A DNA stretch of 64,000 bases from the IMG/VR virus record IMGVR_UViG_3300025902_000014, positions 32,314 to 96,313 of that record. One strand, 5' to 3'. The notes under the pieces were generated by a model that was not told the origin of the DNA, ran no database searches, and saw only the letters and a program-made list of their open reading frames with translations. Both the position numbers and the translations under genes were made by a program. Of the stretch, positions 11,328 through 40,688 are shown in pieces. Positions within the stretch are counted from its first letter, which is position 1. Each line of letters opens with the position of its first letter. This DNA comes from a virus (taxonomy: Duplodnaviria; Caudoviricetes).

Positions 11328-11702
11328 ATGAAGCATTTCGCAGATCAGTTGTTCGAGTCTCTGGACGAGGGGGTGGACCCCAAGTTCAAGTCCGATCTGG
11401 AAAACCTCAAGAGGTACTTGGTCGGGATGGTCGGACAGTTCCACGTTTCGGACTTCGCGGGAGAGTTCAAGCGTATGGGAGACGACGCTCATGCGTGCCT
11501 CGTCATGGCCGAGAAGCTCGAAAAGCATCCCGGGCGACTGCTTCCCGGCGACATCGTGGGGGGCGTGCAGGAGAAGGTCCACGTGGCGGCGGCGACGTAC
11601 GTCAAGCTCGGGGCCGAGATTCGCGAAGTGGACGCGCTCCTTCAGAAGATGAAGGCCAACCTCGCGAAGGCGGTCAACCGGCAGGAGACCACGGAGTCAT
11701 GA
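11328..11702 (+). CDS. leader-family protein (putative head cargo)
   Basis: N-terminus MKHFADQLFESLDE. Confidence 0.65.
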   Translation: MKHFADQLFESLDEGVDPKFKSDLENLKRYLVGMVGQFHVSDFAGEFKRMGDDAHACLVMAEKLEKHPGRLLPGDIVGGVQEKVHVAAATYVKLGAEIREVDALLQKMKANLAKAVNRQETTES

Positions 11703-12409
11703 AGTTCACCGAGGCTGAGCAGTTCCGCATCCAGTGCATCGTGGAGTCCCTCTTCGTCGAGGGGGTCTTCGACCCGGCGATCTTCAAGGCGTTCTTCATG
11801 GCCGGAGGTCCGGGGTCTGGGAAGTCCTTCGTTTCCCGGGCGGTCACGGGCGGCCATGGCCTCGTGACCGTCAACTCCGACACGGCGTTCGAGATCCTCC
11901 TCAAGAAGGCTGGGATGTCCCTGAAGCTCGACACCCTTGACCCGGCGGAGTACGGGGCCGTCCGGGCGCACGCAGGGGATCTGACGAAGGTGCGGCAGCA
12001 TCACTGGGTCAACGAGCGGCTGGGAATGGTCATCGACGGAACGGGGCGGGAAGCCTCGAAGATCGAGCATCAGAAGCACGCTCTCGAACAGCTCGGGTAC
12101 GACACGTACATGATCTTTGTGAACACCTCGCTGGAGGTGGCCCTCTCCCGGAACGCGCAGCGGGATCGCACTGTCCCGGAGCACGTCGTCCGGGAAGCGT
12201 GGCAGCACGTGCAGGACAACATCCCGGCTTTCCGGTCCATGTTCGGTGGGCACTTCTACGTAGTCGAGAACAACGGTCCCAATCAGGATCTTCTCGACCT
12301 CGCGTCGAAGTGGGTCCGCTCGCTCGTGAACACCCCGCCCCAGAACCCCATCGCCAAGAAGTGGATCGCCGACCGGGGAGGCACCGGGGCCATCGCCAAG
12401 TGGAGCTAG
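11699..12409 (+). CDS. P-loop kinase (zeta-toxin/AAA_33-like) with leader motif
   Basis: IVESLFVEG followed by FMAGGPGSGKS, VIDGTG, RNAQRDR. Confidence 0.8.
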   Translation: MKFTEAEQFRIQCIVESLFVEGVFDPAIFKAFFMAGGPGSGKSFVSRAVTGGHGLVTVNSDTAFEILLKKAGMSLKLDTLDPAEYGAVRAHAGDLTKVRQHHWVNERLGMVIDGTGREASKIEHQKHALEQLGYDTYMIFVNTSLEVALSRNAQRDRTVPEHVVREAWQHVQDNIPAFRSMFGGHFYVVENNGPNQDLLDLASKWVRSLVNTPPQNPIAKKWIADRGGTGAIAKWS

Positions 12410-12417
12410 GAGGAGAG

Positions 12418-12603
12418 ATGCCGTACGAAGTCCTGACCGTGTACCTCGACCTGTTCACCCGCGAGGGCTGCCTCGAATTCAAGCGGCTCTGCGAGGTCGA
12501 GGGTTGGCGGCTCCTGTGGCAGGAGCAGGTTCTGAGGAACGACGGGAAGACGGACTTCTCGTCCCACCTCGTCCACTTCCACCGTGGCGGAGAAGTGAAA
12601 TGA
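12418..12603 (+). CDS. hypothetical protein
   Basis: AGGAGGAG SD. Confidence 0.55.
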   Translation: MPYEVLTVYLDLFTREGCLEFKRLCEVEGWRLLWQEQVLRNDGKTDFSSHLVHFHRGGEVK

Positions 12604-12845
12604 AGATCACGACGAAGCTCGTCGAGTCCATCGTGGAGTTCGACCTGCCCGCTTTGACCCCCAAGCAGGAGCTGGAGAACCGGGTCCGGGACATCTTCCA
12701 CATTCATCGCGGGGAGATGACGGATCAGGACGTCAAGTGGCAGCTCAAGACGAAGGCCATGCGCGACGTTCTCGCGGCGCTGGTCAAGGACAAGATCGTG
12801 CTCAAGCGCGGGGGCAAGTACGTGTGGCCCGACATGCGGCACTGA
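12600..12845 (+). CDS. leader-family protein, winged-helix-like body
   Basis: MKITTKLVESIVE. Confidence 0.65.
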   Translation: MKITTKLVESIVEFDLPALTPKQELENRVRDIFHIHRGEMTDQDVKWQLKTKAMRDVLAALVKDKIVLKRGGKYVWPDMRH

Positions 12846-12855
12846 CATTTCTAGC

Positions 12856-12883
12856 TTGACAGTTTGAGACTTTCTGATAGAGT
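12856..12883 (+). promoter_or_regulatory. sigma70-type promoter, leaderless
   Basis: TTGACA-16-TAGAGT, then 6 nt to ATG at 12890. Confidence 0.65.
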
Positions 12884-12889
12884 AGAGCC

Positions 12890-13198
12890 ATGAGAGTGAA
12901 GACGAACCTGACCGAGAAGTTCCTCCCCGATCGCGGGGATCTCCACCCCATCGTTCACTCGAACGGGTCGGGCAAGGCGAACCTTCTCGCGTGGGCTGAG
13001 CACTGCGAGAGTGCTCTGGCGGACGCTCTCACGGCCCTGCACTACGCCGGGGCTCCCCACCAGCGTGACTACTACATCGAAGGCCCCGAGGCATGGAACA
13101 AGGCCAAGAAGGGGTTCGAGGACCGGGTCAAGGCTGTCGCCGAGGTCCACGACTTCTACAGGGATCTGATCGACTACCTGCACACGGTGAAAGGTTGA
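12890..13198 (+). CDS. leader-family protein
   Basis: MRVKTNLTE. Confidence 0.7.
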   Translation: MRVKTNLTEKFLPDRGDLHPIVHSNGSGKANLLAWAEHCESALADALTALHYAGAPHQRDYYIEGPEAWNKAKKGFEDRVKAVAEVHDFYRDLIDYLHTVKG

Positions 13199-13200
13199 CC

Positions 13201-13515
13201 ATGAAAATCAGGACGAACCTGACCGAGGCCCTCGTTGAGGGGCGCGATCTTCCAATCCGATACACCGTCAACCTGACCGCTCCGGGGATGCACTACACCC
13301 CGATGCAGTGGCGGACTCGGCCGCAGGGACAGATCCCGTCCTACGGTGCGCCGACTAACGCCAACCTCGCAAAGTTCATGGCCAAGTTCCTCGAAACCAT
13401 GAAGCCGGGTGGTCACAGCGCTCATCTGGGGGATAAGGGTATTCCTACCCGTGCGACCATCATGGACCACGACACGGGGCAGGTCGTCGCTTCGTGGATA
13501 AATCCGGAGCACTAA
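13201..13515 (+). CDS. leader-family protein
   Basis: MKIRTNLTEALVE. Confidence 0.7.
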   Translation: MKIRTNLTEALVEGRDLPIRYTVNLTAPGMHYTPMQWRTRPQGQIPSYGAPTNANLAKFMAKFLETMKPGGHSAHLGDKGIPTRATIMDHDTGQVVASWINPEH

Positions 13516-13516
13516 G

Positions 13517-13783
13517 ATGAAGGTCAAGACACGTCTCACCGAGGCGCTCACCGAGAGCAACCCGAACGACATGTTCGCCGGGCTCAGCAAGCCCTTCAAG
13601 GGGCTCAAGGCCGGGGACACGGTGTACTTCAAGCAGTACGCCGGGATGGGCCGGGGTGGCCCCGAGTACAGGACCGCCAAGGGCAAGGTGCTGAAGTACC
13701 TCGTCTTCCCCGACCACGTCATGGTCTCGGGGGGCTGGGCGGGTCAGCTCGTCAACGACGAGAACTTCATCAAGAAGGGCTGA
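13517..13783 (+). CDS. leader-family protein
   Basis: MKVKTRLTEALTE. Confidence 0.7.
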   Translation: MKVKTRLTEALTESNPNDMFAGLSKPFKGLKAGDTVYFKQYAGMGRGGPEYRTAKGKVLKYLVFPDHVMVSGGWAGQLVNDENFIKKG

Positions 13784-13785
13784 AC

Positions 13786-14121
13786 ATGAAGGTCACCACC
13801 CAGCTCGCCGAATCTCTCACCGAGGCCGAGGGAAAAGAGGTCTTCCCGCACACCTTGGTCCAGCCGATCGCCCAGCGTCTGGCATCGGCCGCGCCCCTCC
13901 CCGGCCAGCGGAACACGGCCGTGATGCCGCTCGTGGGGATGCTCAAGCCCGGCGGACAGTGGTACCGGGACATCCCGTGGACCGTGATCGAGGGTGTGGC
14001 GAAGAAGCTGGCCATGAAGGAGTACGCCGGGCCGGGGCAGAGCGTGTCCCTCGCTTTGGCGCTGGCGCGGATCTCCATGATCTGGCAGGACGTCTACCAC
14101 AAGTGGCAGAGCGGGGCGTAG
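13786..14121 (+). CDS. leader-family protein
   Basis: MKVTTQLAESLTE. Confidence 0.7.
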   Translation: MKVTTQLAESLTEAEGKEVFPHTLVQPIAQRLASAAPLPGQRNTAVMPLVGMLKPGGQWYRDIPWTVIEGVAKKLAMKEYAGPGQSVSLALALARISMIWQDVYHKWQSGA

Positions 14122-14131
14122 GAGGCCGGTG

Positions 14132-14443
14132 ATGCGCGTCTCGACCCGCCTGACTGAAACCCTCGTCGAGGCCGCCCCGATCGGGGGGAGCTTCCCGTCC
14201 CGGGTGCTCCACGACACGGAGCCCCTCGGGGGCAAGTACGTGCTGTTGGTTCTCTGGGACAAGGGCGACAAGGGAGCCTACGTCTTCGGCGGGCCGGACA
14301 TGATGGCCCACGCCGGGGGCAACGCACGCGCCGGGAACGCCCGGTCGATCGCCTACACGAAGAAGCTCCCGAAGCAGACCGTCGGGGAGTTCAAGGCCAA
14401 GCTCGCCGGATCGAAGTACGCCGGAGCGGAGGTTCACGCATGA
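14132..14443 (+). CDS. leader-family protein
   Basis: MRVSTRLTETLVE. Confidence 0.7.
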   Translation: MRVSTRLTETLVEAAPIGGSFPSRVLHDTEPLGGKYVLLVLWDKGDKGAYVFGGPDMMAHAGGNARAGNARSIAYTKKLPKQTVGEFKAKLAGSKYAGAEVHA

Positions 14444-14670
14444 AGGTCACGACGAACCTGACCGAGGCCCTGACTGAAGCTCCCCGGAAGTGGAAGCGGG
14501 GGCAGTCCGAGGTCTTCAAGGACAAGGGCATCGTGGTCCAGTGGCTCCCCGCGAATCAGGCATGGTTCGTCGGGTTCGGCCGCGACCCCCAGACCGCCAG
14601 CCGCCTCCGGGTCATCAGCGACCCGGTCGAGCTGGACGACTACCTCCGGGTGGACCTGAAGCTCTACTGA
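14440..14670 (+). CDS. leader-family protein
   Basis: MKVTTNLTEALTE. Confidence 0.7.
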   Translation: MKVTTNLTEALTEAPRKWKRGQSEVFKDKGIVVQWLPANQAWFVGFGRDPQTASRLRVISDPVELDDYLRVDLKLY

Positions 14671-14681
14671 GCTGACTCGCA

Positions 14682-14720
14682 AGTTCTAGATTGACAGGTC
14701 TAGAACTCTCGTGGTAGCCT
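14682..14720 (+). promoter_or_regulatory. sigma70-type promoter with a 9-bp inverted repeat flanking the -35
   Basis: AGTTCTAGA-TTGACAGG-TCTAGAACT; TTGACA-18-TAGCCT. Confidence 0.65.
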
Positions 14721-14742
14721 TCCCTTGGTTGGAGGTACCGAT

Positions 14743-15159: not shown

Positions 15160-15200
15160 GGTACTGCTAGTCACCTCGCAGCACACACCCCAAGGATACG

Positions 15201-17568: not shown

Positions 17569-18207
17569 ATGAGTGCCCCGCACCTCATCTACGGCTTGGC
17601 AGATCCCGAAACCGGAAAGCTCCGGTATGTCGGGCAGACCCACCGTACGCTGGATGCCCGGCTCTACCACCACATCTGGGATGCCATTCACCACTCTCAC
17701 AAGAACCGCAAGGACGCTTGGATCTGCAACCTGACGGTGCGGGGCCTGCGTCCGAACATCGTACTTCTGGAGGAGACATCCTCATGGAAGACCCGTGAGA
17801 AGCACTGGATCGCCCAGTTCCCGGATCTCCTGAACTGCACCGAAGGCGGAGAGGGGATCGTCGGGTACAGGCACACCCCGGAAGCCCGGCAGAAGATCGC
17901 TGCGGCGAATCGGCTCAAGGCTGGGAAGAAGCGCACCGGGGAAGCTCTGGCCAACATCACTCGGGGCAACCTGAGTCGGCGGGGTCGGCCTCAGTCGGCG
18001 GAGACCATCGCGAAGAAGGTGGCGGCTCTTCGTGGGAAAAAGGCATCTCCTGAGCTGTGTGCGAAGCGGAAAGCCATGTGGGCTACTCCGGAACGCCGGG
18101 AGCAGGGCCGCCTGAACGCGCAGAAACGTTGGGATAGGGAAGAGGCCGAGTGGCGGGCTTCCTATCCAGAGTCATTCACCAGTCTGAGCACAACTCAGAC
18201 AAACTAG
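17569..18207 (+). mobile_element. GIY-YIG homing endonuclease with NUMOD3 repeats
   Basis: LIYGL...RYVGQT, REKHWI...LLNCTEGGEG, HTPEARQKI. Confidence 0.8.
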
Positions 18208-18503: not shown

Positions 18504-18980
18504 ATGCTGAACCGGGTGACCCAAGTCTTCTCCCCGTTCGGGTCGGGGGGCTTTCTCAGGCAGATGGCCGAGGCTGCGCTTCGGAACGTCAAGGAGTTTG
18601 AACTCAAGGTCGGCTCCTCTGAGAAGAGCCCCTACGACTTCCCGGTGGAGAAGCTCGGGGATCTCATGCTGGTCAGCATCGACGAGGAAGGTACGGTCCT
18701 CCGGGCACGGACCGTCAAGAACTCTCCCGGGAAGGATTACCAGTGGGCGGGTCCATGCACCCCCAAGGCGAATCTGTTCCGTGTCCTGAAGTTCGTCGGG
18801 GATGACCCTCTCGACCGTCAGAAGTTTCTTGACTACGTCTACAACTTCCGGAACGTCCTGATCGACCTCAAGAAGGAAACCATCGTCGTCATCGACGAGA
18901 ACACGGCGGAAGCGTTGACGGTCACCAGCGGGGTTCAGGCTCCTCGGGTGGCCGCCATCATGACCGCACTGGGACAGTGA
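18504..18980 (+). CDS. hypothetical protein (head module)
   Basis: ORF coupled to the protease gene. Confidence 0.65.
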   Translation: MLNRVTQVFSPFGSGGFLRQMAEAALRNVKEFELKVGSSEKSPYDFPVEKLGDLMLVSIDEEGTVLRARTVKNSPGKDYQWAGPCTPKANLFRVLKFVGDDPLDRQKFLDYVYNFRNVLIDLKKETIVVIDENTAEALTVTSGVQAPRVAAIMTALGQ

Positions 18981-20923
18981 TGAGACTTCTCGAAGCATCT
19001 TACTTTGAGGGTTACGAGATCCTCGAAGGCTCGGGCGAGGGGGCCAAGCCCCTGATCGTGCGGGGTGTGTTCGGGCGGGCGAATGTCAAGAACGAGAACG
19101 GACGGATCTACCCGGACAGCGTCTGGAGGAAGGTTCTCTCTGAGAGTTCCGAGGCCATGGGACGAATCAAGTCCCGGAACTTCTTCAGCGAACTCGACCA
19201 CCCGGACGATGGCCGGACTCTTCTTCAGCGTGTGGCCGGACTGACCACGCGACTGGAGATGCGTCCCGACTGGGCCGTGTACGGTGAGGCGGAGATCCTC
19301 CCGACCCCGGCGGGGAAGATCCTCGAAGCCCTTTTCCGCTCGAAGGCCAAGATCGGCATCTCTTCGCGTGGGGAAGGGGATCTCCTGAAGACCGAGTCTG
19401 GTGACATCGTTCAGGAGAACTTTGAACTTCAGGCATTCGACTTCGTCCACAACCCCTCGACTCAGGGGGCCTATCCCAACCCCGTCTTCGAGCATCTTCT
19501 GGCCCGAAGGACAGGAGATCGAATGATGGATCTGATGGAAGAGTTCAAGGCACTGGAGAGGTCCGTCCTCGAACTCGTGAACCTGAAGCCCTCGGAGGTG
19601 TCCGCCGCCATGCGGCCCCTCGTCGAGCGTCAGGCGACCGAGACGATGGTCAAGCTCTCCAAGCTGTCCGAGTCGGCGGGGGACATGAAGCCCCTGTTCA
19701 TCGGACTTCTCTCCGAACTGAACACCGCTCGTCGTCCTTTCGTCCGTCTGGGCGAGAACGACGGCGGCAACTACCACCCGGGGCTCGTGGACAAGCTCCT
19801 CGCGGCGACCAACACGGCCAAGGCCGGTGAGGCCGGAAGCGTCGAGGCCCTCCCCGCGACGGTGGAACCCGACTCTCTCCCCCTCATCCCCGGCGCGGAC
19901 CCGAAGGCCGTGGGTGAGTCCAAGACCGAAAAGACCCGCAAGGAGGAAGCCAAGATGGCCGAGGCCGCGAAGAAGAATTCCATGAGCAAGGCCCTCCGGT
20001 CGGCGATCCGTGAAGCCGAGGACGAGCTGGATCAGATCGCCACCGACGAGAGCGAGGACGAGACCGCCCTCGCGGCACAGGAGGCGGCGCAGAAGTGCGA
20101 GTCCCGGCTCCTCAAGGCCGCCCGGAAGGTCATGGAGGGGGACGGCGCGAACCTCATGCCCGACTCCTACGAGCCCGCCGAGCCCAAGGGCGAGGAAGAG
20201 ATCGGCGAGTCCGAGGACGGTGACGAGGACGACGTCCCGACCCTCACGGCGTCCGACGACGACGAGAACCAGTTCGGCGAGGACGAGAACGGCCCGCCGC
20301 CCGAGATTCAGGCCAAGATCGACGCCAAGGAGTCCAAGCGCAGGCGGCCCTCCGCCCTCCGCCGGTTCTCCGAGAGCGACGACGACAGCATCGACATCCC
20401 GGCCCCTCCCAAGGAGGAGGCCGAGACCGAGCCCACGGACGACGACGGTCAGCCCCTCCCCCCGATGGAGGCGAAGATCGTCAAGACCTACCGCAAGCTC
20501 GTCCGCGAGAACCGCCGGATGCGCTACGAGGCGAGGGTCACCGAGGCCATCGCGGCCAAGGCCATCGCCAAGCTCACCCGCAGGGTCCGCGCCACCGAGG
20601 CGGCCCGCCCGTCCGCCCCGGCCTTCATCGTGGCCGGTGGCCAGAAGATCCCGGTCAAGGTGGCCGGGTCGGTCATCGAGTCCCTCGTCCGCCGCTACAA
20701 GGAGCTGAAGAAGACCTCCGGCGGCAAGGTCACGGAGTCCGCCGGTTCGCCCGACCCGGGCAGCATCTCCGAGGGTCCGTTCGGCGTTCCGTCGTTCGCC
20801 AAGGTGGGCAACGTCGCCCGCCTGAACGAGGCCGCCACGGCCGGACGCAAGACCGAGAAGTCGATCCTCGAAAGTCAGGCTGAGCTGGGTGCCCGCGTGG
20901 CCGCCCGGATCGGTCGGGTCTAA
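18977..20923 (+). CDS. prohead protease (T4 gp21-like) fused to an acidic scaffold/core domain
   Basis: NENGRIYP, ELDHP, ILPTPAG, GISSRGEG, FDFVHNPS; long acidic/coiled C-terminus; directly upstream of the capsid gene. Confidence 0.9.
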   Translation: MMRLLEASYFEGYEILEGSGEGAKPLIVRGVFGRANVKNENGRIYPDSVWRKVLSESSEAMGRIKSRNFFSELDHPDDGRTLLQRVAGLTTRLEMRPDWAVYGEAEILPTPAGKILEALFRSKAKIGISSRGEGDLLKTESGDIVQENFELQAFDFVHNPSTQGAYPNPVFEHLLARRTGDRMMDLMEEFKALERSVLELVNLKPSEVSAAMRPLVERQATETMVKLSKLSESAGDMKPLFIGLLSELNTARRPFVRLGENDGGNYHPGLVDKLLAATNTAKAGEAGSVEALPATVEPDSLPLIPGADPKAVGESKTEKTRKEEAKMAEAAKKNSMSKALRSAIREAEDELDQIATDESEDETALAAQEAAQKCESRLLKAARKVMEGDGANLMPDSYEPAEPKGEEEIGESEDGDEDDVPTLTASDDDENQFGEDENGPPPEIQAKIDAKESKRRRPSALRRFSESDDDSIDIPAPPKEEAETEPTDDDGQPLPPMEAKIVKTYRKLVRENRRMRYEARVTEAIAAKAIAKLTRRVRATEAARPSAPAFIVAGGQKIPVKVAGSVIESLVRRYKELKKTSGGKVTESAGSPDPGSISEGPFGVPSFAKVGNVARLNEAATAGRKTEKSILESQAELGARVAARIGRV

Positions 20924-20955: not shown

Positions 20956-22380
20956 ATGGAACTCAACGAAGCAACGTTCAAGATGGGAACCTCGGAGCGG
21001 GTCAACAACGCTCTGGCCGCGTCCAAGTGGCGCAGGTTCCTCGAAGCCGCCAAGGTGCCCGAGGCCAAGCGGCCCTTCATCGCCCGGCTCTGCGAGAACC
21101 AGCTCACGTGGATGAGCCAGCTCGACGAGGAGACCCGTGTGGCCTCCATCGGGTCGTTCGAGAAGTTCGTCTTCCCGATGATCCGTGCGGTCTACCCGAA
21201 CCTCGTCGCGCAGGATCTCGTCTCGGTGCAGCCGATGGAGGCTCCGACCTCCCTCGTGTTCTACCGCGACACCCGGTTCGGCTCCAACAAGGGCGCGGTG
21301 AAGGCGGGTGATCCGCTCTTCAGTGCGCGCACCGGCTGGAACAACGCCTCCGGGTTCAACTACACCTCCGAGGTCGTCGAGAACGAAGAGATCGAGATGT
21401 CCACGGGCACGGGCGTGTCCTTCACGGGCAACCTCGCCTACCACCCCCTCCGTCCGGGCGGGCTGGTGATCTCCTACCTCAAGACCGCCGGGACCGCTGC
21501 GACCCTCACCGACGACGGCGCGGGCGGCCTCATCGGCGCGGCCGGTGAGCTGGCCGGGACGAACACGATCGACTACGGCACGGGTGCCTACGTCATCACC
21601 TTCGACACCGGGAAAGACCCGGCGGCCGGGGCCTTCACGGCCACGTACGACTACAACTCCGAGGGCTACGGGGACATCCCGCAGATCGACCTCATCCTCA
21701 CGAGCACGCCCGTCGTGGCTCGCCCGAGGAAGCTCCGCGCTCGGTGGAGCATCGAGGCGGCGGCCCAGCTCAAGGCGGTCCACGGTGACGAGGCCGAGGT
21801 CGAGCTGATGACCGACATGGCCAACGAGATGCGGATCGAGGTCGATCGCGAGATCATCTACGACCTCATCACCCTCGCCAACTCCAACAACACCTCTGGC
21901 ACGATCACCGAGACGACGTTCGCCAAGGCCGCGCCTTCGAACATCAGCCTCTACCTGCACCGCCAGAGCTTCATCTACTCGCTCATCGAAGCCTCGAACA
22001 AGATCTTTCAGGCGACCCGTCGCCACGGAGCCACGTGGCTCATCGGCGGCACGAACGTCTGCTCGATCATTCAGGGTCAGGAGGGCGAGCAGTTCGTCCC
22101 GGCCGGTGGCGACTATCAGGGTTCCGGCGTCCAGTTCATCGGCACCCTGAAGGGCCAGTGGAAGGTCTACCTCGACCCGTACATGAACGCGGACGAGGCC
22201 ATCCTCGGCTACAAGGGCGGGTCGTTCCTCGACAGCGGCTACGTCTACGCGCCGTGGGTTCCCTTCTACGCCACCCCGACCATCTACCTCGACGACTTCG
22301 TCGGCCGCAAGGGGCTCTTCACCAGCTACGCGAAGAAGCCGATCAACGGGCTCTTCTATGCAAAGTTGAGGCTCACCTAA
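20956..22380 (+). CDS. major capsid protein (T4 gp23-like)
   Basis: IRAVYPNLVAQDLVSVQPM, ARPRKLRARWSIEAAAQL, EVDREII, GYKG...YAPW. Confidence 0.95.
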   Translation: MELNEATFKMGTSERVNNALAASKWRRFLEAAKVPEAKRPFIARLCENQLTWMSQLDEETRVASIGSFEKFVFPMIRAVYPNLVAQDLVSVQPMEAPTSLVFYRDTRFGSNKGAVKAGDPLFSARTGWNNASGFNYTSEVVENEEIEMSTGTGVSFTGNLAYHPLRPGGLVISYLKTAGTAATLTDDGAGGLIGAAGELAGTNTIDYGTGAYVITFDTGKDPAAGAFTATYDYNSEGYGDIPQIDLILTSTPVVARPRKLRARWSIEAAAQLKAVHGDEAEVELMTDMANEMRIEVDREIIYDLITLANSNNTSGTITETTFAKAAPSNISLYLHRQSFIYSLIEASNKIFQATRRHGATWLIGGTNVCSIIQGQEGEQFVPAGGDYQGSGVQFIGTLKGQWKVYLDPYMNADEAILGYKGGSFLDSGYVYAPWVPFYATPTIYLDDFVGRKGLFTSYAKKPINGLFYAKLRLT

Positions 22381-22506: not shown

Positions 22507-23169
22507 ATGGTCAGCATCTACATCCTCATGGACCCTGCCGGTCAGATCCGGTACGTGGGCAAGGCGAAAGACCCGGAGCAAAGGCTGAAGGTCCATCTCA
22601 AGACCAGAGGGGTGGTCAGGTGGTGGGCTGAACAGCTCTCCGGACCGCCCACACTGAGGGTGGTAGACGAGGTGGGAGACCACCTGTGGCAGCACGCAGA
22701 GCGGTTCTGGATCAAGAAGCTGCGGGATGCGGGGTGTGACCTGCTCAACCGTGCTGAGGGTGGCCAAGGTGGTGCTTACCCGAAAGGAGAGGCTCAGCGC
22801 AGGGCGATCGGAGAAGCCAGTCGCAAGAACTGGACTGATCCTGCTTTCCGGGAGAAGGTGATCTCTGGTCGGGTGGGGTATCGGCATTCTGAGGAGACGA
22901 AGCAGAAGATCAGTGCGGCCATGCAGGGCAAAACGCATCGGGGAGTTCCACACACGGAGGCAACTAAACAACGGCTACGGGAACTGCATCTTGGTGTACG
23001 GCGAGGTTCACAGTCTGTAGAAGCTCGTCAAAAAATGTCTGAGGCGAAAAGGAGGTACTGGCATGAGTGGCGGGAACGACGTGCTGTCGAAGCTGGATCT
23101 GTGGAAACAGGAGCGACAGGAGGAAGCCGAGAAACTGACCCCAAGGGATCTTCTCAAGCTGGAAGCTGA
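22507..23169 (+). mobile_element. GIY-YIG homing endonuclease with NUMOD3 repeats
   Basis: SIYIL...RYVGKA, AERFWI...LLNRAEGG, HSEETKQKIS. Confidence 0.8.
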
Positions 23170-23641
23170 AGTGGCTGCGGAGGAGGCGGGGCGTCTGGCT
23201 AAGAAAGTCGAGTTGGGTGACAAGATCTCCCTTGCCCTGTCCGGGAGAACTCTGTCGCCTGCGCACAAGCTGGCGATCTCCGAGGCCAAGCTCGGTATCA
23301 AGCAGAGCCCCGAGCACATCGCTGCCCGGGTGGCCCCCCGTCTGGGGAGGCCCCTCACCGAAGAACATCGGAGGCATTGCTCGGAGGCACGGCTGGGGTG
23401 GAACCCGTCGGAGGAGACTCGGGCGAGGATGTCGGCGGCCAAGAAGGGAAAACCCGGCCGGAAGCTGACCCCGGAAGACATCGCCCGGCTCAACGCCTCG
23501 CGCCAGACTCCGGAGTGGAGGGAGAAGATCCGGGTGGCGAACACGGGGCAGAAACGTTCCCCCGAAACCCGGGAGAAGATCCGGCTCGCCAAGCTCGGGA
23601 AGAAGCTCGGGCCTCGGGTGAAGGTTGCACTATCCCAGTGA
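23063..23641 (+). CDS. NUMOD3-repeat DNA-binding protein with no nuclease domain
   Basis: Repeats of the SEETRARMSAAKKG and SPETREKIRLAKLG type. Confidence 0.6.
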   Translation: MSGGNDVLSKLDLWKQERQEEAEKLTPRDLLKLEAEVAAEEAGRLAKKVELGDKISLALSGRTLSPAHKLAISEAKLGIKQSPEHIAARVAPRLGRPLTEEHRRHCSEARLGWNPSEETRARMSAAKKGKPGRKLTPEDIARLNASRQTPEWREKIRVANTGQKRSPETREKIRLAKLGKKLGPRVKVALSQ

Positions 23642-26866: not shown

Positions 26867-27316
26867 ATGGCGTACTGGGTTCTGAGATCAACGTCAACTT
26901 CCCAGATCGAGGAGGACGTGGACTCGATCGTGGAAGATCTCCTCGTCCCGGACATGCAGACCCTCGAAGCTCTCGAAGAGGGAATGCTTCAGCATGGCTG
27001 GGTGAAGTTCAAGGCCATCGTGAAGAAGCTGCTGCCGGACGTCTTCAGCAAGATCAGCAACGCCAAGCACCAGCGGTTCCTCGTCCAGATGGGGGAGCGG
27101 CCGGGAAGTCCCACCGTCGAGGTGGACCACTCTCTCGACGCAGCCCCTCGTGCGCCGGTTCAGCCCGGGGACAAGATCCAGATCCGTGGCCTGCTCGAAC
27201 CTCACGGCGGCGACGGGAACAAGCCCGTGGTCCACTTCACCCACAAGTCCCGGGATGGATCTGAGGCTGGCTTCATCTGGAAGGGTGAGACCCCTCCGGT
27301 GTGGACGGTGAAGTGA
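26867..27316 (+). CDS. DUF3465-like OB-fold protein
   Basis: KLLPD...HQRFLV...GDKIQIRG...VVHFTH. Confidence 0.6.
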   Translation: MAYWVLRSTSTSQIEEDVDSIVEDLLVPDMQTLEALEEGMLQHGWVKFKAIVKKLLPDVFSKISNAKHQRFLVQMGERPGSPTVEVDHSLDAAPRAPVQPGDKIQIRGLLEPHGGDGNKPVVHFTHKSRDGSEAGFIWKGETPPVWTVK

Positions 27317-28164
27317 GCACGAAAACCTTCCTCGTTCTCCGGTTGGGCCACAACGTCGCGGCCTCGCTGGACAACAAGAACGCGGCGAACATCGGGGGGA
27401 TGGCCTCGTTCATCCTCTCGGCGCTGGACAAGGACATCGCTTTCGGAGACAAGCTCTCCCTGTACGAGGTCACGGCCGAGCTGCCGTTCGCAGGCTACAT
27501 CCAGTACCGGGGGTCGTCCGTCCAGAACCGTTACCTCGATGGGGATGTCCGTGCCGAGCACGTGGGAGAGATGACGATCCACACAAACGCGAAGTGGTAC
27601 TCGTTCCCGGCGGGTGGGAAGTGGAAGGCCCACCTGAAGCGGACGGTGGACAACGCCATCCACGTGCTGGACGCCATGGTCCCGGAGAGGTTCCCCCGGG
27701 AGAAGCGCATCGCCATGTGCGGCGAAGTCCAGATTCAGCAGCTCTTGAAGCACGTTTTCCACGAGATGCACGAGGAGAAGAATATGAAGACCACCACGAA
27801 GATCGTTGAGGCTCTGCTCGGAGAGGGATTCGGGGGCTCGGGCAAGACCGTCAAGCTCTCTCCCGGTGATCGGTCGCAGATCAACAGGGGTATCTACTCG
27901 GCGACGTTGAACAAGTATTTCAACAGTCTTGCGGCGGCCATCGAGGTAATCAACCATGCCATGAAGCCGGTGGGTTACTTCATCATGGCATCGTCCGACT
28001 ACATGGGCAGGGATGACGGGCACAAGAACCTCCCGATCCACAAGGAGCACCCGGAGGGTACGGACCCGTTCATGGGCCACGATGAGGTCTCGAACTGCTG
28101 GCTCTCGTTCTCATGGCACAAGATGGGGTCCGGGAAGTACGAGATCACGGCGTACGTGAGCTGA
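27313..28164 (+). CDS. two-domain protein with an internal leader-family start at 27784
   Basis: GAGGAG SD plus ATG 27784, giving MKTTTKIVEALLGE in frame. Confidence 0.6.
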   Translation: MSTKTFLVLRLGHNVAASLDNKNAANIGGMASFILSALDKDIAFGDKLSLYEVTAELPFAGYIQYRGSSVQNRYLDGDVRAEHVGEMTIHTNAKWYSFPAGGKWKAHLKRTVDNAIHVLDAMVPERFPREKRIAMCGEVQIQQLLKHVFHEMHEEKNMKTTTKIVEALLGEGFGGSGKTVKLSPGDRSQINRGIYSATLNKYFNSLAAAIEVINHAMKPVGYFIMASSDYMGRDDGHKNLPIHKEHPEGTDPFMGHDEVSNCWLSFSWHKMGSGKYEITAYVS

Positions 28165-29994: not shown

Positions 29995-30366
29995 ATGGAT
30001 CAGAAACCGGAAGCCATCGTCGAGTCCCTTCTCGGAGAAGGCTCCCTCACTGAGGGGGACGTCCACGGTCTCATGTCGTCCATCGACGGCTTCGAGCGGG
30101 TCATGTCCGGGTCGGACTTCCAGCACATCTACGCGGCCCTTCAGGTCGTCAAGCCGGACGTCTGGGGGCATCTTCCGGGTGAGGTTGTGGGGAACCTGAA
30201 GTCCAAGCTCGACACGGCCCGGGTGGGGCTCGTCAACTTCGTCACGGCGGCCAAGGCAGCGGTGGGGAAGGCGAACTCCTACAAGCCCCCGACGGAGTAC
30301 AGCGGGTACGACTCGGCCGCTCATTCCGGGGAGCACAACCCGACCGTCCACGGGCTCGGGGTCTGA
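29995..30366 (+). CDS. leader-family protein
   Basis: EAIVESLLGEGSLTE; ACTATC 16 nt upstream. Confidence 0.65.
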   Translation: MDQKPEAIVESLLGEGSLTEGDVHGLMSSIDGFERVMSGSDFQHIYAALQVVKPDVWGHLPGEVVGNLKSKLDTARVGLVNFVTAAKAAVGKANSYKPPTEYSGYDSAAHSGEHNPTVHGLGV

Positions 30367-30367: not shown

Positions 30368-30667
30368 ATGGCCGAAGGCCGGGGTCCGCGACGGAACAAC
30401 CTCGTCGAGGCCATCGCGGATCTTCTGATCTTCCGGGCTCTTCTGCCCCTCCACGAGGGGGCATGGGATGCTCCGTACATGACGGTCCTGAAGTCTCTGG
30501 AACGGGAAGTAGAACGGTTCATCGCTCTCGTTCCGAAGGTGGAGAAACTCAATCCCGGGCTGGCGAAGACGCTCTGGCATGAACTGGGGGCGAAGAGCAT
30601 GGAGATCCATCAGCTCTACGCCGAGCTGGATCAACGGGTCAAGGAAGCAGAAAGGCATCAAGCATGA
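30368..30667 (+). CDS. hypothetical helical protein
   Basis: Coupled ORF; LVEAI...LHE may be a leader variant. Confidence 0.55.
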   Translation: MAEGRGPRRNNLVEAIADLLIFRALLPLHEGAWDAPYMTVLKSLEREVERFIALVPKVEKLNPGLAKTLWHELGAKSMEIHQLYAELDQRVKEAERHQA

Positions 30668-31014
30668 GGATCGCCGAACAGCTCGCCCAGAGCCTGACCG
30701 AGCAGACCGTCACCGAGATGGACGACTCCGCCCTCCTCGTGGTGGACCGCATCCTGTCCGACATCGACCGGTACATCGCGGCCCACCTCGAACACGAGTT
30801 GGGGATGCTGAAGGACGGGTTGAAGAGCGCGGAGAAGCAGATCGCCGGGCTCAAGAATGCGGGGGCCGGGAAGACGGAGCACGACTCCATCCTCCTCAAG
30901 GTTGTCATGCCCGCGTGGCACCGCTTCGAGTCGCAGGTCACGGACATGGGCACCCGGTTCAAGAAGCTCGAAGCTGCCGCCAAGGCGGGAGGAAGGGAAT
31001 GGGACGCACCGTGA
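30664..31014 (+). CDS. leader-family protein
   Basis: MRIAEQLAQSLTE. Confidence 0.7.
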   Translation: MRIAEQLAQSLTEQTVTEMDDSALLVVDRILSDIDRYIAAHLEHELGMLKDGLKSAEKQIAGLKNAGAGKTEHDSILLKVVMPAWHRFESQVTDMGTRFKKLEAAAKAGGREWDAP

Positions 31015-31956: not shown

Positions 31957-32796
31957 ATGGCCAGTTTCGACGCTGACATGGACGAGAAGATCCTTCTCGA
32001 CAAGCCTGAGACCGAGGACGACACGTCCATCCCGAAAGACCTGCTGGGAGTCAAGGCGTTCCCCGGCAGCCCGGACGTGACGGAGGACGACATGGACGTG
32101 ACTTCCGGCCCGAGGGACTTCCTCGGCAAGCCCACCAACTCGATGCAGAAGACCGAGAGCGTCTACTCGCAGATGACCCGGGCTCTCACCGAGGCCGGGC
32201 CGGTCCTCACCTGTCCGAAGTGCCACACCCCGGACGTCCGGATCAAGCACGAGGGGGACATGTGCCCTCCGTGCGAGAAGGCCCATCCTGAGTTCGGAAA
32301 CATGGATGACTCTGTGCAGGAGATGACGACGGCAGCCGACATCGCCACGGTGCCCATGGGTTTCAAGGTGGACCCCGAGGACAAGCCCACCCCCGAGGAG
32401 ACGGCCGAGACCGGGATCAGTCTGACCGGGGCTCCGAACCGGGTGCCGGAGTCCCACCAGCGACTTCCCCACCTCACGGCGTTCCTCGAAGAGTTCGGGG
32501 GCCAGCCCGGGAAGTTCCAGATTCGGGAGGCCCAGATCGCCGAGTCCATGGAGAGCATGGACTCTTTCATGCGGACTTTGAAGGCGGATGCCGAGACTCT
32601 CCAGAAATTCGTGGCCCACATGGAGTTCCTGAAGACTTTCCCGGCTGCCGGAAGCCCCACGGACAAGGTGCATCAGGCCGCACACTCCATGATGACCGAC
32701 TACTACAACGGTCACGGGTGCATCGCGAACCTCTATCACAACAGCAACGAACTCCGGAAGGCGCTGGAGGCAGCCGGGGGAAGGCCGAAGAAGTAA
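31957..32796 (+). CDS. acidic hypothetical protein with Zn finger and internal ALTE motif
   Basis: MTRALTEAG, CPKC...CPPC. Confidence 0.6.
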   Translation: MASFDADMDEKILLDKPETEDDTSIPKDLLGVKAFPGSPDVTEDDMDVTSGPRDFLGKPTNSMQKTESVYSQMTRALTEAGPVLTCPKCHTPDVRIKHEGDMCPPCEKAHPEFGNMDDSVQEMTTAADIATVPMGFKVDPEDKPTPEETAETGISLTGAPNRVPESHQRLPHLTAFLEEFGGQPGKFQIREAQIAESMESMDSFMRTLKADAETLQKFVAHMEFLKTFPAAGSPTDKVHQAAHSMMTDYYNGHGCIANLYHNSNELRKALEAAGGRPKK

Positions 32797-36518: not shown

Positions 36519-37011
36519 GATGATGGCTGAACCGAAGAAGCTCCGAATCGTAGACCGACCGGTCAAGAACTTGCGGGTCACCCGCAAGACGCTGGAGCAG
36601 CAGGCGTGGTACTCCGTTCAGCCCAACCTTCGGCACGTCGAGAAGGACGATCACGGGAACATACGCTTCTACGTGAAGCACAGCCCCTCAGCAAACCGCT
36701 ACGCCGACATGACCGAGCTGCACACCATGTCGAATGCCGAACTTCTGAAGCTGAGGAAGTGGCCAGCGGATACCGTCGTCTCGGAAGGAATCACCATGGC
36801 CCATGCCGACCAGATCGTGGAATCTCTCCTGAGCGGATCGTTCGTCGTGGGGAACCAGACGTTCGAGACCCTCGGGTCAGCCCAGAAGGCCGCCGAACAG
36901 CTCGCCCGGAACTCCAACGGCAAGACCATCTTCGTGAAGACGGACGCTGGGAAGATCGTCAAGGAGATCTCGGCAGGCCCGAACGGACTTCTCAACGTCA
37001 GGAGCAGGTAA
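36519..37011 (+). CDS. hypothetical protein with an internal leader start at 36796
   Basis: AAGGA SD plus MAHADQIVESLL in frame. Confidence 0.55.
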
Positions 37012-37967
37012 TGAAGCATCAGGTGGTCCGCATCAAAAGCCATGGCCAGACCCTTGAACTGAAGAAATTTCCTCTGGACACTCCGGACCATGTGATGGAC
37101 CAGTACATCGACGCCGCGTATGCCAAGTACGACAAACTTGGTAAGGACGTGATGGCCTACACGAAAGTGGAGTCGAAAATGGGGCCGGGGGAGGTTACGC
37201 GAATCACCGAGGCCCTTCTCGACGAGAGCAACGGGCACCACGCGCACATGGGTGGGAAGCTCTATGCCGACTCCGGGTTCCTCCAGAGCGTGAGCAGCCT
37301 CGGGCACGGGTACGAGGTCAACCACATGGGGTTCGGGGAGTTCTCCGTCAAGACGCCTCTCGGTGAAGTTGAATTCAACCGAATGGCCGGGAAGGATTTT
37401 CCGGGGCAGTCGGGGCGCAGTCACAACATCTACGACACCAAGGGTGGAACCAAGGCGGCCGAGGCCCTGATTCACGCCATGCAGCAGAAGTCACTGTCTA
37501 CGGAAGTTCATGGAGAGGCCAAGGTCACGTCTTCGGGACGAATCACTGAAGCTCTTCTTGCAGAGCGGTCTCTGTCTTCGTTACCGTCGAAGGTGACCCC
37601 GGCCTCTAACACTGGAGGGGCGGGGTGCTCTAGTTGTGGTAAGAGATTCAGTGCGGGAGAGCGGTACTATTTCCATGACAAGGAACCCGTCTGTCAGAAG
37701 TGCGCGCTTCGTCGGCTGGCCACGGAAACGGAATCGGTTTCCGAAGCAGTTCTGACGGAATACGGGGACAGCAGCAACTTCTCGAACTACGTTCCTCTCA
37801 CGGCGAAGCGGGCTGGTCCGGCGGACTGCAAGCCCGGACACACGGTCAAGGTCGGTGACAAGGTCGGCTGGAACCCTCGCACCAAGAAGGTCTACTGCGC
37901 CGATTGCTGGCACAAGTGGTCCATGGAGAACATGCACGCCCGGAACTCCGAGATGGGGTGGTACTGA
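37011..37967 (+). CDS. multi-domain putative polyprotein
   Basis: Internal RITEALLDE, RITEALLAE and VSEAVLTE separate small domains. Confidence 0.65.
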   Translation: MKHQVVRIKSHGQTLELKKFPLDTPDHVMDQYIDAAYAKYDKLGKDVMAYTKVESKMGPGEVTRITEALLDESNGHHAHMGGKLYADSGFLQSVSSLGHGYEVNHMGFGEFSVKTPLGEVEFNRMAGKDFPGQSGRSHNIYDTKGGTKAAEALIHAMQQKSLSTEVHGEAKVTSSGRITEALLAERSLSSLPSKVTPASNTGGAGCSSCGKRFSAGERYYFHDKEPVCQKCALRRLATETESVSEAVLTEYGDSSNFSNYVPLTAKRAGPADCKPGHTVKVGDKVGWNPRTKKVYCADCWHKWSMENMHARNSEMGWY

Positions 37968-38839
37968 TGACTCGCGACGAGCTGGAAAAGAAGGCGTGGG
38001 AGAAGATCCCTGCTCGGTTTCGGACGACGGTCAACGGCCAGCAAGCGGTGCTGCCTCCGAAACCGGGCATGGGGCCGGGGCCAGTGATCTTCTCGTCTTT
38101 TCCCGACAAGCTCCTGCTCAAGTGGGCCGGGCTCCCGGCGACCGTCCCGGTCACGGAGGGCACGGCGGCCCGGCACGCCAAGCGCATCGTCGAGGCCCTC
38201 CTGACCGAGCGGCACTTCGTCGCCACTGTCACCGGGAAGGGCGGCTACTACAAGTGGCACGCGGTCCGGGACGACGGCATGGGGTTCGGAAGCTCCTTCA
38301 CCTACACGACTGCCGGAGAGGCCGAGCGTTCGGCGCAGAAAAACCTCGGGAAGATGGGGTCCGTGGTCGTCAAGCACGTTCAGGAGTCCAAGGATCTCGT
38401 GCATCACACGGGTCCGCTTCCTCCCGGGGGACTGGTCTCGGGGAAGTGTAAGAACTGCAAGACCCCGTTCACCGTCTCCGGGAAAGCGATCCAGCACGAC
38501 GGGTCCATCATCTGCCCGAAGTGCAAGAAGAACGCGGATGTCGTCGAGTCCGTCACGGAGTCTCTTCTTGAGGAGGAGCCGTTCCAGCTCAAGATCAAGT
38601 GCGAGTCGTTCGGAAAGACCCTGTCTGGAAAGTACGGCAATCAGGGCTCGTATACCGGTTCGTTCACCGCTGCCCAGTTCATCCAGAGGCTCAAGAACTC
38701 TTTCCCCATCGACCGTGAGGGGCAGCCGGTTCATTACCAGTTCACGTCCCTCGACGGGCATCAGGGGATCGTGGACCATCTTGTTGCTGAGCACCTCCCG
38801 AAGACTGGGAAGCAGCCCGGCGGATCGGCCTACAGGTAG
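37967..38839 (+). CDS. multi-domain putative polyprotein
   Basis: Internal RIVEALLTE and VTESLLEE. Confidence 0.65.
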   Translation: MTRDELEKKAWEKIPARFRTTVNGQQAVLPPKPGMGPGPVIFSSFPDKLLLKWAGLPATVPVTEGTAARHAKRIVEALLTERHFVATVTGKGGYYKWHAVRDDGMGFGSSFTYTTAGEAERSAQKNLGKMGSVVVKHVQESKDLVHHTGPLPPGGLVSGKCKNCKTPFTVSGKAIQHDGSIICPKCKKNADVVESVTESLLEEEPFQLKIKCESFGKTLSGKYGNQGSYTGSFTAAQFIQRLKNSFPIDREGQPVHYQFTSLDGHQGIVDHLVAEHLPKTGKQPGGSAYR

Positions 38840-38843
38840 TTTG

Positions 38844-39230: not shown

Positions 39231-39260
39231 CTTGACAAGTCAAGTCTTAGCAGGCAAGAT
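39230..39260 (+). promoter_or_regulatory. sigma70-type promoter with a perfect palindrome, leaderless
   Basis: ACTTGAC-AA-GTCAAGT; TTGACA-17-CAAGAT, then 6 nt to ATG at 39267. Confidence 0.6.
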
Positions 39261-39266
39261 ATGGGC

Positions 39267-39620
39267 ATGGAAAAAGCCACCGAGACCGTCCCCACCCCTC
39301 CGGCTGGATCTGTGGACTTCTCGACTGCCCTGCATTCCTTCCTGAACTTCGTCAAGGGGCGTGTGGACGAGCGGTACGAGAAGACCCTCTCCGAGCTGTC
39401 CCGCCCCACGTTCACGCTCGACGTCGGCCGCAAGTACATACGGATCGTCTGCAACAGAGCGCCCGGCAGCAGCCGCTACGTCTACGGCTTCGTGGACGCG
39501 ACGAACGGGAACCTCCTGAAGGCTGCGGGCTGGAAGGCCCCGGCTCTGAACTTCCCCCGGGGGAACGTGTTCAAGCCCGAGACGTGGCCCCGCGCAGCGG
39601 GCGACTACGGGATCGGATAG
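39267..39620 (+). CDS. hypothetical phage protein
   Basis: GRKYIRIV...YGFVD...LLKAAGWKAPA...RGNV. Confidence 0.7.
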   Translation: MEKATETVPTPPAGSVDFSTALHSFLNFVKGRVDERYEKTLSELSRPTFTLDVGRKYIRIVCNRAPGSSRYVYGFVDATNGNLLKAAGWKAPALNFPRGNVFKPETWPRAAGDYGIG

Positions 39621-39632
39621 AAAAGGCAAGGC

Positions 39633-39998
39633 ATGAGAGTCACCACCAAACTCATCGAGGCCATTCTCCGCGAGGGAGTCTTCGATGTCCACACGGCTGA
39701 GCAGTGGATCACCCACATCAAGAGCGGGGTTCATGCCCCGGTCGTGCGGGCGGACAAAAGCACTCTCGGCGGCGCGGACAGGGTGTCGATCATGATGACC
39801 ATCAGCCTCGATCCGAAAGAATCGTGGCACAACGGTATCCTCCAGAATTCCCGGTACATGAACATGCACCTCGGCAACGATGGGACGCTGGAGCAGATCT
39901 CGGGGAGCAAACTCCGGTTCCGGAAGACCCGTGTCACCAGTTCCGACGATGTCGTGGCCAAGCTCAACAAGTTCATCGCCTCCGTCCCGGTGGCGTAG
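39633..39998 (+). CDS. leader-family protein
   Basis: MRVTTKLIEAILRE. Confidence 0.7.
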   Translation: MRVTTKLIEAILREGVFDVHTAEQWITHIKSGVHAPVVRADKSTLGGADRVSIMMTISLDPKESWHNGILQNSRYMNMHLGNDGTLEQISGSKLRFRKTRVTSSDDVVAKLNKFIASVPVA

Positions 39999-40007
39999 GG
40001 AGGCGAA

Positions 40008-40055
40008 ATGAAGGTCACCACCAAGCTCACCAGCAAGCCGGACTATCCTTCGTAA
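40008..40055 (+). pseudogene. leader-only remnant or minigene, MKVTTKLTSKPDYPS
   Basis: GGGAGG SD; first 8 residues match the leader, then an early stop. Confidence 0.5.
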
Positions 40056-40059
40056 GGGG

Positions 40060-40416
40060 ATGACGATGCGAATCTGGAAACAGCTTCAGGAGGCCATGGC
40101 GGCCGACGAGTTCCCGCAGGTGGCTTCGGCGGCTCCCAACCCGGAGCAGGAGGCCGAGGCTCCCCCCGAGGAGCAGGAGGCCCAGCCCCTCCTCCCGGGC
40201 CTCCACGAGACCGGGAACCAGCTCAAGACCCTGAACACCTCCCGGGCGGTCCTCGTGGCCGTCGTGAATGACCTCGCCACGGTCATCGAAGCCTTCAGGA
40301 AGGCCGAGGGGATGTCCACCAAGCCCGAGGTCACCTCCCAGCTCTCCGGGGTCCACATGGCCGCCCTGAAGCTCGCCACCGAGGTCCACAAGCTCAAGGT
40401 GGAGCTGGGGTCGTGA
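40060..40416 (+). CDS. hypothetical protein with a leader variant
   Basis: MRIWKQLQEAM; ACTATC upstream. Confidence 0.6.
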   Translation: MTMRIWKQLQEAMAADEFPQVASAAPNPEQEAEAPPEEQEAQPLLPGLHETGNQLKTLNTSRAVLVAVVNDLATVIEAFRKAEGMSTKPEVTSQLSGVHMAALKLATEVHKLKVELGS

Positions 40417-40688
40417 GGCTCTCCGAGGCCCTCGTGGAGGCTCTCCTTCGGGAAGACGGCCACGTGTCCACCGGCCCGGCCCGCAAGGAGCTGGAGCGGA
40501 AGGCGTGGGCGGCCCAGCACCGGGACTACAAAGGCAAGGGTGCGGACGGGGTCCGTCGGATGCTCCACCGCAACCCCAAGACGGGGGGCACGGAGAGCTG
40601 GCCCATCGAGCAGATTCCGGATGCGGATCTGGAGTCGCTGGCTCGGATGTATGACAGGAAGAAGGCAGCGGGTCAAGTTTCTTCTTGA
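40413..40688 (+). CDS. leader-family protein
   Basis: MRLSEALVEALLRE. Confidence 0.7.
   Translation: MRLSEALVEALLREDGHVSTGPARKELERKAWAAQHRDYKGKGADGVRRMLHRNPKTGGTESWPIEQIPDADLESLARMYDRKKAAGQVSS

Follow-up and report, generated by a model that had tools for sequence, protein, structure and literature searches.

Why should sixteen small proteins with mutually unrelated bodies, encoded among the structural genes of a single phage, all begin with what is recognizably the same short peptide? The question is raised by the window analyzed here, a stretch of 64,000 nucleotides (nt) that forms the final 64 kb (positions 32,314 to 96,313) of the 96,313-nt virus record IMGVR_UViG_3300025902_000014, and for which an earlier note had proposed that a common N-terminal leader loads about 25 proteins into the phage head. 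In phage T4 a capsid-targeting sequence (CTS) is carried by the internal proteins (IPs) IPI, IPII and IPIII and by Alt, and the gp21 prohead protease cleaves it off (Mullaney and Black 1996, via PMC9026906, PMC8442874, PMC3012670). We consider it probable, if far from assured, that the peptide shared here is a capsid-targeting propeptide of the T4 kind and that it belongs to a much expanded system. All positions are those of the window unless the contig, that is the entire record, or another locus is named.

Occurrence and Distribution of the Leader

The leader spans 9 to 14 residues and follows the consensus Met-Lys/Arg-Val/Ile/Leu-x-Thr/Glu-x-Leu/Ile-x-Glu-Ala/Ser-Leu/Ile-x-(x)-Glu, with two subclasses, class A (Met-Lys/Arg-Val/Ile-x-Thr) and class B (Met-Arg-Ile/Leu-Ala/Ser-Glu-Gln). 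A hidden Markov model (HMM) trained on 15 leaders and run at E < 0.1 against the six-frame translation of the entire 96,313-nt contig gives 16 matches, every one of them on the + strand and at an ATG, GTG or TTG start, within positions 12600 to 40416. The matches begin at the first positions of the following genes (lengths in amino acids, aa; GC3, G+C content at third codon positions; ORF, open reading frame).

12600..12845, + strand: leader gene, 81 aa, class A leader of 13 residues; HMM 20.2 bits, GC3 0.93
12890..13198, + strand: leader gene, 102 aa, short 9-residue leader with the first Leu-x-Glu unit only; HMM 10.3 bits over model positions 1-9
13201..13515, + strand: leader gene, 104 aa; HMM 21.8 bits
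13517..13783, + strand: leader gene, 88 aa; HMM 20.5 bits
13786..14121, + strand: leader gene, 111 aa; HMM and ortholog comparison
14132..14443, + strand: leader gene, 103 aa; HMM 18.4 bits
14440..14670, + strand: leader gene, 76 aa, final member of a seven-gene tandem array; HMM 21.7 bits
24618..24944, + strand: leader gene, 108 aa, class B; HMM 20.5 bits
24946..25314, + strand: leader gene, 122 aa, TTG start; HMM 18.3 bits
26610..26858, + strand: leader gene, 82 aa; HMM 17.9 bits, GC3 0.77
27784..28164, + strand: leader and 112-aa body, in frame within ORF 27313-28164, GAGGAG upstream; HMM
30664..31014, + strand: leader gene, 116 aa, class B; HMM 18.7 bits
31011..31280, + strand: leader gene, 89 aa, class B, GTG start; HMM 15.2 bits
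38844..39230, + strand: leader gene, 128 aa, class B, C-terminal zinc ribbon; HMM and domain match
39633..39998, + strand: leader gene, 121 aa, novel alpha/beta body; HMM, structure model and ten orthologs
40413..40688, + strand: leader gene, 91 aa, class B, GTG start, body with the 'KAW' domain described below; HMM

Weaker HMM matches below these 16 are core-only partials, and on the contig the model finds nothing on the − strand, nothing in the 43 kb that precede window position 11328 and nothing past 41 kb. A strict regular expression for the leader, applied to all six frames of the window, returns 13 matches, each of them at a start codon of the + strand, and the − strand has none. The GC3 of all leader ORFs lies between 0.72 and 0.94, the coding composition of this genome. 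Among the genes called on the contig by codon usage, 167 of 170 lie on the + strand and roughly one in ten is tagged; the full leader is found in 15 of the 53 called genes within 11.3-41 kb versus 0 of 117 elsewhere (Fisher p = 5.4e-9), the latter comprising 92 upstream accessory and replication genes and 25 downstream genes. Within-protein shuffles predict the core motif in the first 25 residues of 0.05 proteins (maximum 1 in 500) versus 14 observed, and at internal positions 0.18 are predicted versus 5 observed.

These counts bear on several statements of the earlier note. The N-terminal peptide that it had described as common to many ORFs is real, and so is its confinement to the structural-gene region with no copies in the accessory block; the check for enrichment that it had called for has now been run with the HMM and gives no excess at early or replication N-termini, the leader being concentrated in 11.3-41 kb. 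Its figure of about 25 proteins was generous, since the tally is 16 firm leaders, 3 to 4 degenerate N-terminal ones and 5 inside longer ORFs. Sixteen of the 20 examples that it listed are firm, three (11328, 11699 and 29995) are degenerate, and that at 36796 is internal, about 95 residues into ORF 36520-37011. The features that lie outside the firm set are as follows.

11328..11702, + strand: degenerate leader gene, core Leu-Phe-Glu-Ser-Leu-Asp-Glu at residues 8-14; below HMM threshold
11699..12409, + strand: Zeta-toxin/AAA_33-type P-loop kinase whose N-terminus has an insert of 13 residues containing the leader core; domain and family comparison
29995..30366, + strand: gene with the leader core at residues 8-15, the same core being present in its ortholog at the related locus L001; partial HMM match and ortholog
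36520..38839, + strand: three larger ORFs (36520-37011, 37011-37967, 37967-38839) with five internal core copies; HMM and shuffles

The copy at 27784, which has its own good ribosome-binding site (GAGGAG) upstream, may represent an internal start or an internal cleavage site, and the three ORFs of 36520-38839 are either cleavable multi-module proteins or carry integral helices of a shared domain. One ORF of the early region, at contig position 12833 (19.5 kb before the window starts), has seven residues like those of a class A leader and no Glu units; the run starts at an in-frame Met two codons before the called GTG, scores 3.6 bits (E = 13) and is probably due to chance.

Leader Anatomy and the Level of Selection

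Both subclasses place hydrophobic residues at positions 3, 7 and 11, have Glu9 in most members and carry their last Glu at position 13 or 14. Position 7 is Leu, Ile or Met in 16 of 16 leaders, and the Glu at 13 or 14 is present in all except the short leader of 12890. Read in this way the leader consists of one or two tandem Leu/Ile-x-Glu units, the final one directly before the body, and we take this unit to be the functional module because the 12890 leader has the first unit only, an ortholog of the 13786 protein is without one unit and one of the 39633 orthologs is shorter by a single residue. In the first of these orthologs, a metagenomic protein that is 69% identical to its counterpart, exactly one four-residue x-Leu-x-Glu unit is absent and the leader still closes on Leu-Thr-Glu immediately before the conserved body. 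All ten orthologs of the 39633 protein keep the leader, with Leu7 among the most conserved columns of the family, and it is the second unit that is shortened by one residue in a single member. An AlphaFold2 (AF2) model of the 39633 protein, with a predicted local distance difference test score (pLDDT) of 85, places a low-confidence leader helix at residues 2-14, followed by a linker and a compact alpha/beta domain, and the leader is thus modeled as an amphipathic helix; a two-row alignment for the 13786 protein gave a model with pLDDT 48.8, which is unusable.

Selection acts on the leader peptide and not on the DNA that encodes it, since codon choice is free and the DNA upstream shows no relatedness. 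At identical leader residues the same codon is used in 45% of pairs versus the 52% predicted by codon usage, and mean nucleotide identity is 57% over the first 36 nt of the leaders versus 28% over the 36 nt upstream. A few members of the array (13201/14440 and 12890/14440) have exact runs of 16-21 nt in common; such runs could help recombination without explaining the pattern. Three other roles for the peptide were considered and rejected: a secretion or lipoprotein signal, as the leader has neither a hydrophobic stretch nor a Cys; a translation or RNA element, given the varying codons and unrelated upstream DNA; and a tag for a radical-SAM maturase, PF04055 being without a match on the 96-kb record, an absence that is not final at a CheckV completeness of about 67%.

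Head Protease, Scaffold-Like Tail and Capsid

A gp21-type prohead protease is indeed encoded, as had been claimed, and a gp23-type capsid protein with it.

18980..20923, + strand: prohead protease of family S77 (residues about 15-170) fused with a C-terminal part that is long, acidic, coiled and scaffold-like; Pfam and structure match
20956..22380, + strand: gp23-type major capsid protein; PF07068 at 3e-58

The 647-residue protease-scaffold protein matches PF03420 (Peptidase_S77) at 5.5e-13 and the T4 gp21 structure 5JBL at 2.3e-7, and the catalytic His74 and Ser129 (Ser128/129 in an alignment of 12 protease relatives) are invariant. S77 matches better than PF20034 (S80), for which the score is 23.3 bits versus a cut-off of 23.4. 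Fusion of the protease to a long C-terminal extension is a common architecture, found in 4,939 relatives of mostly 400-680 residues. Before the catalytic domain the family conserves a Leu-x-Glu at residues 3-5 and an Ile/Val-x-Glu-Gly at about 14-17, T4 gp21 having a cleavage-type site near its own N-terminus as well (PMC9026906), and the C-terminal tail contains conserved Val-Thr-Glu-Ala and Val-Ile-Glu-Ser-Leu-Val segments. The major capsid protein, whose best phage matches are merely 28-37% identical, conserves Leu-x-Glu at residues 45-47 and 56-58 of its propeptide region, ahead of the segment that can be aligned with mature T4 gp23. These protease and capsid sites would fit a hydrophobic-x-Glu specificity, a fit that does not amount to proof.

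The Val-Ile-Glu-Ser-Leu-Val helix of the tail (residues about 560-575), which is kept in 9 of the 12 relatives, resembles the leader core. The likeness could reflect shared cleavage sites or mimicry of the scaffold by the leader.

The window also encodes a gp15-like sheath stabilizer, a head-tail adaptor and a tail sheath. Because these are found together with the gp23-family capsid protein and the gp21-type S77 protease, the phage is placed, on its gene content, as a distant member of the T4 supergroup.

Bodies behind the Leader

The bodies are mutually unrelated, in agreement with what had been noted before: no pair among the small proteins is significant by BLASTP, and alignment of two body profiles with hhalign gives a probability of 0.3%. 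Without the leader they have masses of 7-13 kDa, and the isoelectric point (pI) exceeds 9 in 11 of the 16; collectively they are significantly more basic than the remaining 60-140-residue proteins of the contig (median pI 9.4 versus 6.4, Mann-Whitney p = 0.004). Pfam and PHROG searches with the tagged proteins return nothing beyond the 11699 kinase, the 38844 zinc ribbon and one PHROG of unknown function, and a Foldseek search of the 39633 model against the PDB gives no match at E ≤ 0.001.

A domain that we refer to as KAW (Arg-x-Glu-Leu-Glu-x-Lys-Ala-Trp ... Trp-Pro) occurs in three proteins, at 40413-40688, 37967-38236 and 36574-36870. It follows the leader in the 40413 protein, where it ends in a similar but non-identical helix, and in the 36520 and 37967 proteins an internal helix resembling the leader comes after it. 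The internal copies of these last two may be integral helices and not cleavage joints, because they follow the common KAW domain, which closes on a similar helix in the 40413 protein.

The kinase encoded at 11699 falls in a family with over 7,600 metagenomic members, which is also represented in Pelagibacter phage HTVC008M, the Melnitz phages and Agrobacterium phage Atu_ph07. Within this family the 13-residue N-terminal insert with the leader core is found only in the phage studied here and its three closest relatives, which is how a portable tag grafted onto an existing enzyme would be expected to look. PHROG matches place the kinase domain within very long proteins as well, one family of which is annotated as a minor head protein, a weak hint at the level of annotation. 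The kinase family has an N-terminal peptide of nine residues that resembles the T4 CTS and ends in Leu-Gln-Glu-Gly (11699-12409; 20010-20672 of locus L060, which corresponds to HTVC008M gp129). In HTVC008M the kinase gene is located in the replication module, and a pattern search of that phage for the N-terminal start of the kinase family gave no match.

Related Loci and Variable Islands

A search for related loci by capsid protein found none in viral contigs and one in metagenome contigs, L001, whose capsid protein is 76% identical. A backbone of two small head genes, the protease-scaffold gene, the capsid gene, two neck genes, two further genes and the gp15-like gene is conserved between the two. 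L001 has no ortholog for any of the 16 firm leader genes, the sole shared case being the degenerate gene at 29995. Comparison of the window with L001 places the leader genes in variable islands between conserved structural genes, and the islands of L001 hold other genes instead, several of which have leader-like starts. We propose that the tagged genes are accessory cargo of fast turnover, housed in these islands.

A crude test for N-terminal clustering was applied to 35 distant relatives within 10 kb of the protease gene and recovered the array of the window as positive control. In one relative, L073 (protease 41% identical), four tandem genes at 4759-6480 of that locus share a leader of their own, Met-Leu-x-Arg/Gly ... 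Leu-Thr/Cys-Glu with the last three residues at positions 9-11, which differs from that of the window. A degenerate DNA pattern for the leader, searched over IMG/VR, gave 58 single matches and never more than one per contig; 49 of the 58 are one unrelated internal peptide of a 40-kb phage family and the remainder look like chance.

Promoters of the Leader Genes

The array is preceded by a promoter that is recognizable in its sequence.

12856..12883, + strand: sigma-70-like promoter, TTGACA, 16-nt spacer, TAGAGT; the ATG at 12890 comes 6 nt later

The mRNA heading the 12890 array is probably leaderless. An extended form of the TTGACA-type motif (followed by gtt..AGCTTG and a weak -10 element) is found at about 20 intergenic sites, in the accessory region as well as in the structural one; within the window these are at 1706, 4107, 7449, 12856, 14691, 15236, 15707, 22472, 23830, 39232, 40685 and 41057, and about 10 more lie upstream on the contig. 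At several of these an ATG lies about 35 nt past the start of the -35 element, and leaderless mRNAs are therefore implied.

Proposed Function and Its Alternatives

In the mechanism that we propose the leader would fold as a short amphipathic helix, with its hydrophobic residues at positions 3, 7 and 11, and would dock the cargo on the scaffolding core during prohead building, that core being probably the long C-terminal part of the protease-scaffold fusion. The gp21-type serine protease would cut after Glu at residue 9 and at residue 13 or 14 so that the small fragments exit the shell, and the mature proteins of 7-13 kDa, mostly basic, would remain associated with the DNA and accompany it into the host. 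A good part of the capsid-targeting proposal made earlier is consistent with what is observed, namely a motif restricted to start codons of the structural region, selection at the level of the peptide, basic and unrelated bodies, an intact S77 protease alongside a gp23-type capsid, a leader that ends in Leu/Ile-x-Glu and is retained by orthologs, and the location of the genes in islands.

Several points weigh against this reading. Docking, cleavage, retention in the head and injection are carried over by analogy from the T4 precedent only, the phage being uncultured. The leader is too short to show homology to the T4 CTS; the two agree only in the Met-Lys start, the hydrophobic residue at position 7 and the final hydrophobic-x-Glu (PMC8442874), and a stretch of ten residues does not suffice for a homology test. 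A TTGACA promoter of the kind used in the accessory region precedes the seven-gene array and several other leader genes, and a T4-type late promoter, TATAAATA, was looked for and is not present. Co-expression with head assembly, and its timing, are therefore not established, nor is the label 'late' that had been given to the leader genes, the array at 12890-14670 being under the same sigma-70-like promoter as accessory genes; proteins made early can still be packaged. Five of the 16 bodies are neutral or acidic, and in 34 of the 35 distant relatives the crude test detects no comparable cluster of leaders. Finally, the core motif is present in the context of the shared KAW domain and in the conserved helix of the scaffold tail, and for this reason it could be a helix for interactions in general and not a site of cleavage.

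This last point leads to an explanation that we regard as unlikely and yet take seriously, in which the leader is an amphipathic helix that is never cleaved and that recruits the small proteins to one non-capsid partner, be it a host machine, a phage hub or the proteins themselves by self-association. The AF2 model, with its free amphipathic helix on a linker, would suit such a role, as would the cores inside larger proteins, in a shared domain context and in the scaffold helix, and the accessory-type promoter of the array; cleavage itself, moreover, is inferred rather than demonstrated. An uncleaved helix does not account well for a leader that always closes on a gp21-type hydrophobic-x-Glu motif directly before the body, for an ortholog indel of exactly one such unit, for the confinement of the leader to structural-gene islands with none in the 92 accessory and replication genes, or for bodies that are unusually basic, and the leader of L073 differs in sequence yet retains its Leu-x-Glu end.

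A bolder version of the capsid-targeting reading can also be formulated, one that we would call doubtful: a single tag would load at least 20 effectors by imitating the Val-Ile-Glu-Ser-Leu-Val helix of the scaffold tail and occupying scaffold-type sites of the prohead, the tags between modules (27313, 37011 and 37967) would make these ORFs cleavable polyproteins, and the zeta-toxin-like kinase would be among the injected proteins. If this were true, the phage would devote a tenth of its genome to a plug-in arsenal that is delivered upon infection.

Rather improbable, in our view, is a leader that serves as a removable propeptide controlling activity or stability, in the manner of a zymogen or a timed release, and that has no part in loading. 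The cleavage-type motif at the end of the leader and the presence of an S77 protease are what such a propeptide would call for, and the promoter type suggests that expression may begin before head assembly. Against it, proteases of the gp21 type work inside the assembled prohead, so their substrates are already inside (PMC5694885, PMC9026906), and 16 unrelated folds would hardly all be inhibited by a helix of 9-14 residues on a flexible linker. Very improbable indeed is the notion that the conserved 5' ends are DNA anchors for the swapping of cassettes by recombination, with a functionless peptide, for although a few array members share exact runs and the islands turn over rapidly, the codon and nucleotide identities given above speak against it, and in orthologs from other phages the pattern of the peptide persists while its residues differ; such anchors could coexist with a capsid-targeting peptide but not replace it.

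Comparison with Known Systems and Significance

The CTS of T4 has 10 residues, targets the scaffolding core, is removed by one gp21 cut and can load foreign proteins (PMC8442874, PMC9026906, PMC5694885). When its final residue is changed to Asp, processing is prevented and targeting persists (PMC9026906). The internal proteins of T-even phages are poorly conserved and highly diverse, the CTS being the sole part common to them (PMC3012670, PMC9026906), and those of T4 have been described as 'highly basic' (PMC8442874). The leader described here is likewise a short N-terminal peptide of the Met-Lys type with hydrophobic residues near positions 4 and 7 and an Ile/Leu-x-Glu end, and the two systems have in common a set of unrelated, small, mostly basic tagged proteins, an S77 protease, a gp23-type capsid and poor conservation between relatives. 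They differ in that T4 has three IPs plus Alt, encoded at a single locus, whereas at least 16 tagged genes are found here, distributed across several islands between the genes for head, neck and tail; in that the leader usually has two tandem Leu-x-Glu units (13-14 residues) and comes in two subclasses; and in the protease-scaffold fusion, the lack of T4 late promoters and the motif copies inside longer proteins. The contrast drawn in the earlier note, that T4 has only three IP genes, overstates the novelty, as T-even IPs already form a highly diverse set that shares the CTS (PMC3012670, PMC9026906).

In phiKZ, 201phi2-1 and SPN3US, as would be the case here, many head-internal proteins are cut after Glu by a gp21-related protease; in such giant phages a propeptide may have several cleavage sites, and paralogs with identical N-terminal runs occur (PMC5694885, PMC7411985). 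Their propeptides are mostly longer than 100 residues, with Ser/Ala/Gly-x-Glu sites, on large proteins of paralog families, in contrast to the 9-14 residues on small unrelated proteins in the present case. A long-propeptide system of the giant-phage type is accordingly rejected, with PF20034 under its cut-off, leaders of 9-14 residues and Leu/Ile at P3. In DarB of phage P1, too, an N-terminal segment sends the protein or a fused reporter into the capsid for delivery to the host; unlike the present leader, that signal has 30 residues and belongs to one 250-kDa protein of an unrelated lineage, with no link to an S77 motif (PMC9024508).

For T4 and phages close to it the principle has been published before, and giant phages are known to process head proteins; the present case differs in its scale, the tandem units, the two subclasses, the spread over several islands, the fused protease-scaffold, a kinase as cargo and possible internal copies. 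If the leader is a loading tag, some 16-25 different pre-made proteins would be delivered together with the DNA, far above the classical T4 set, and the tag would provide a sequence handle with which to list the first-minute effectors (anti-defense, host takeover) of uncultured phages, most of the effectors so listed being orphans with new folds. The CTS principle, demonstrated so far in T-even phages, would then reach distant high-GC relatives with a fused protease-scaffold, and a compact tag of 9-14 residues would be available for packaging foreign proteins in other phage chassis.

Other Features of the Record

The DNA of the phage has a G+C content of 63%, and protein clusters indicate a 144-kb assembly of the same phage. 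Genes resembling homing endonucleases (phrog_314) are found at 17569-18207 and 23063-23641, one on each side of the head-gene block.

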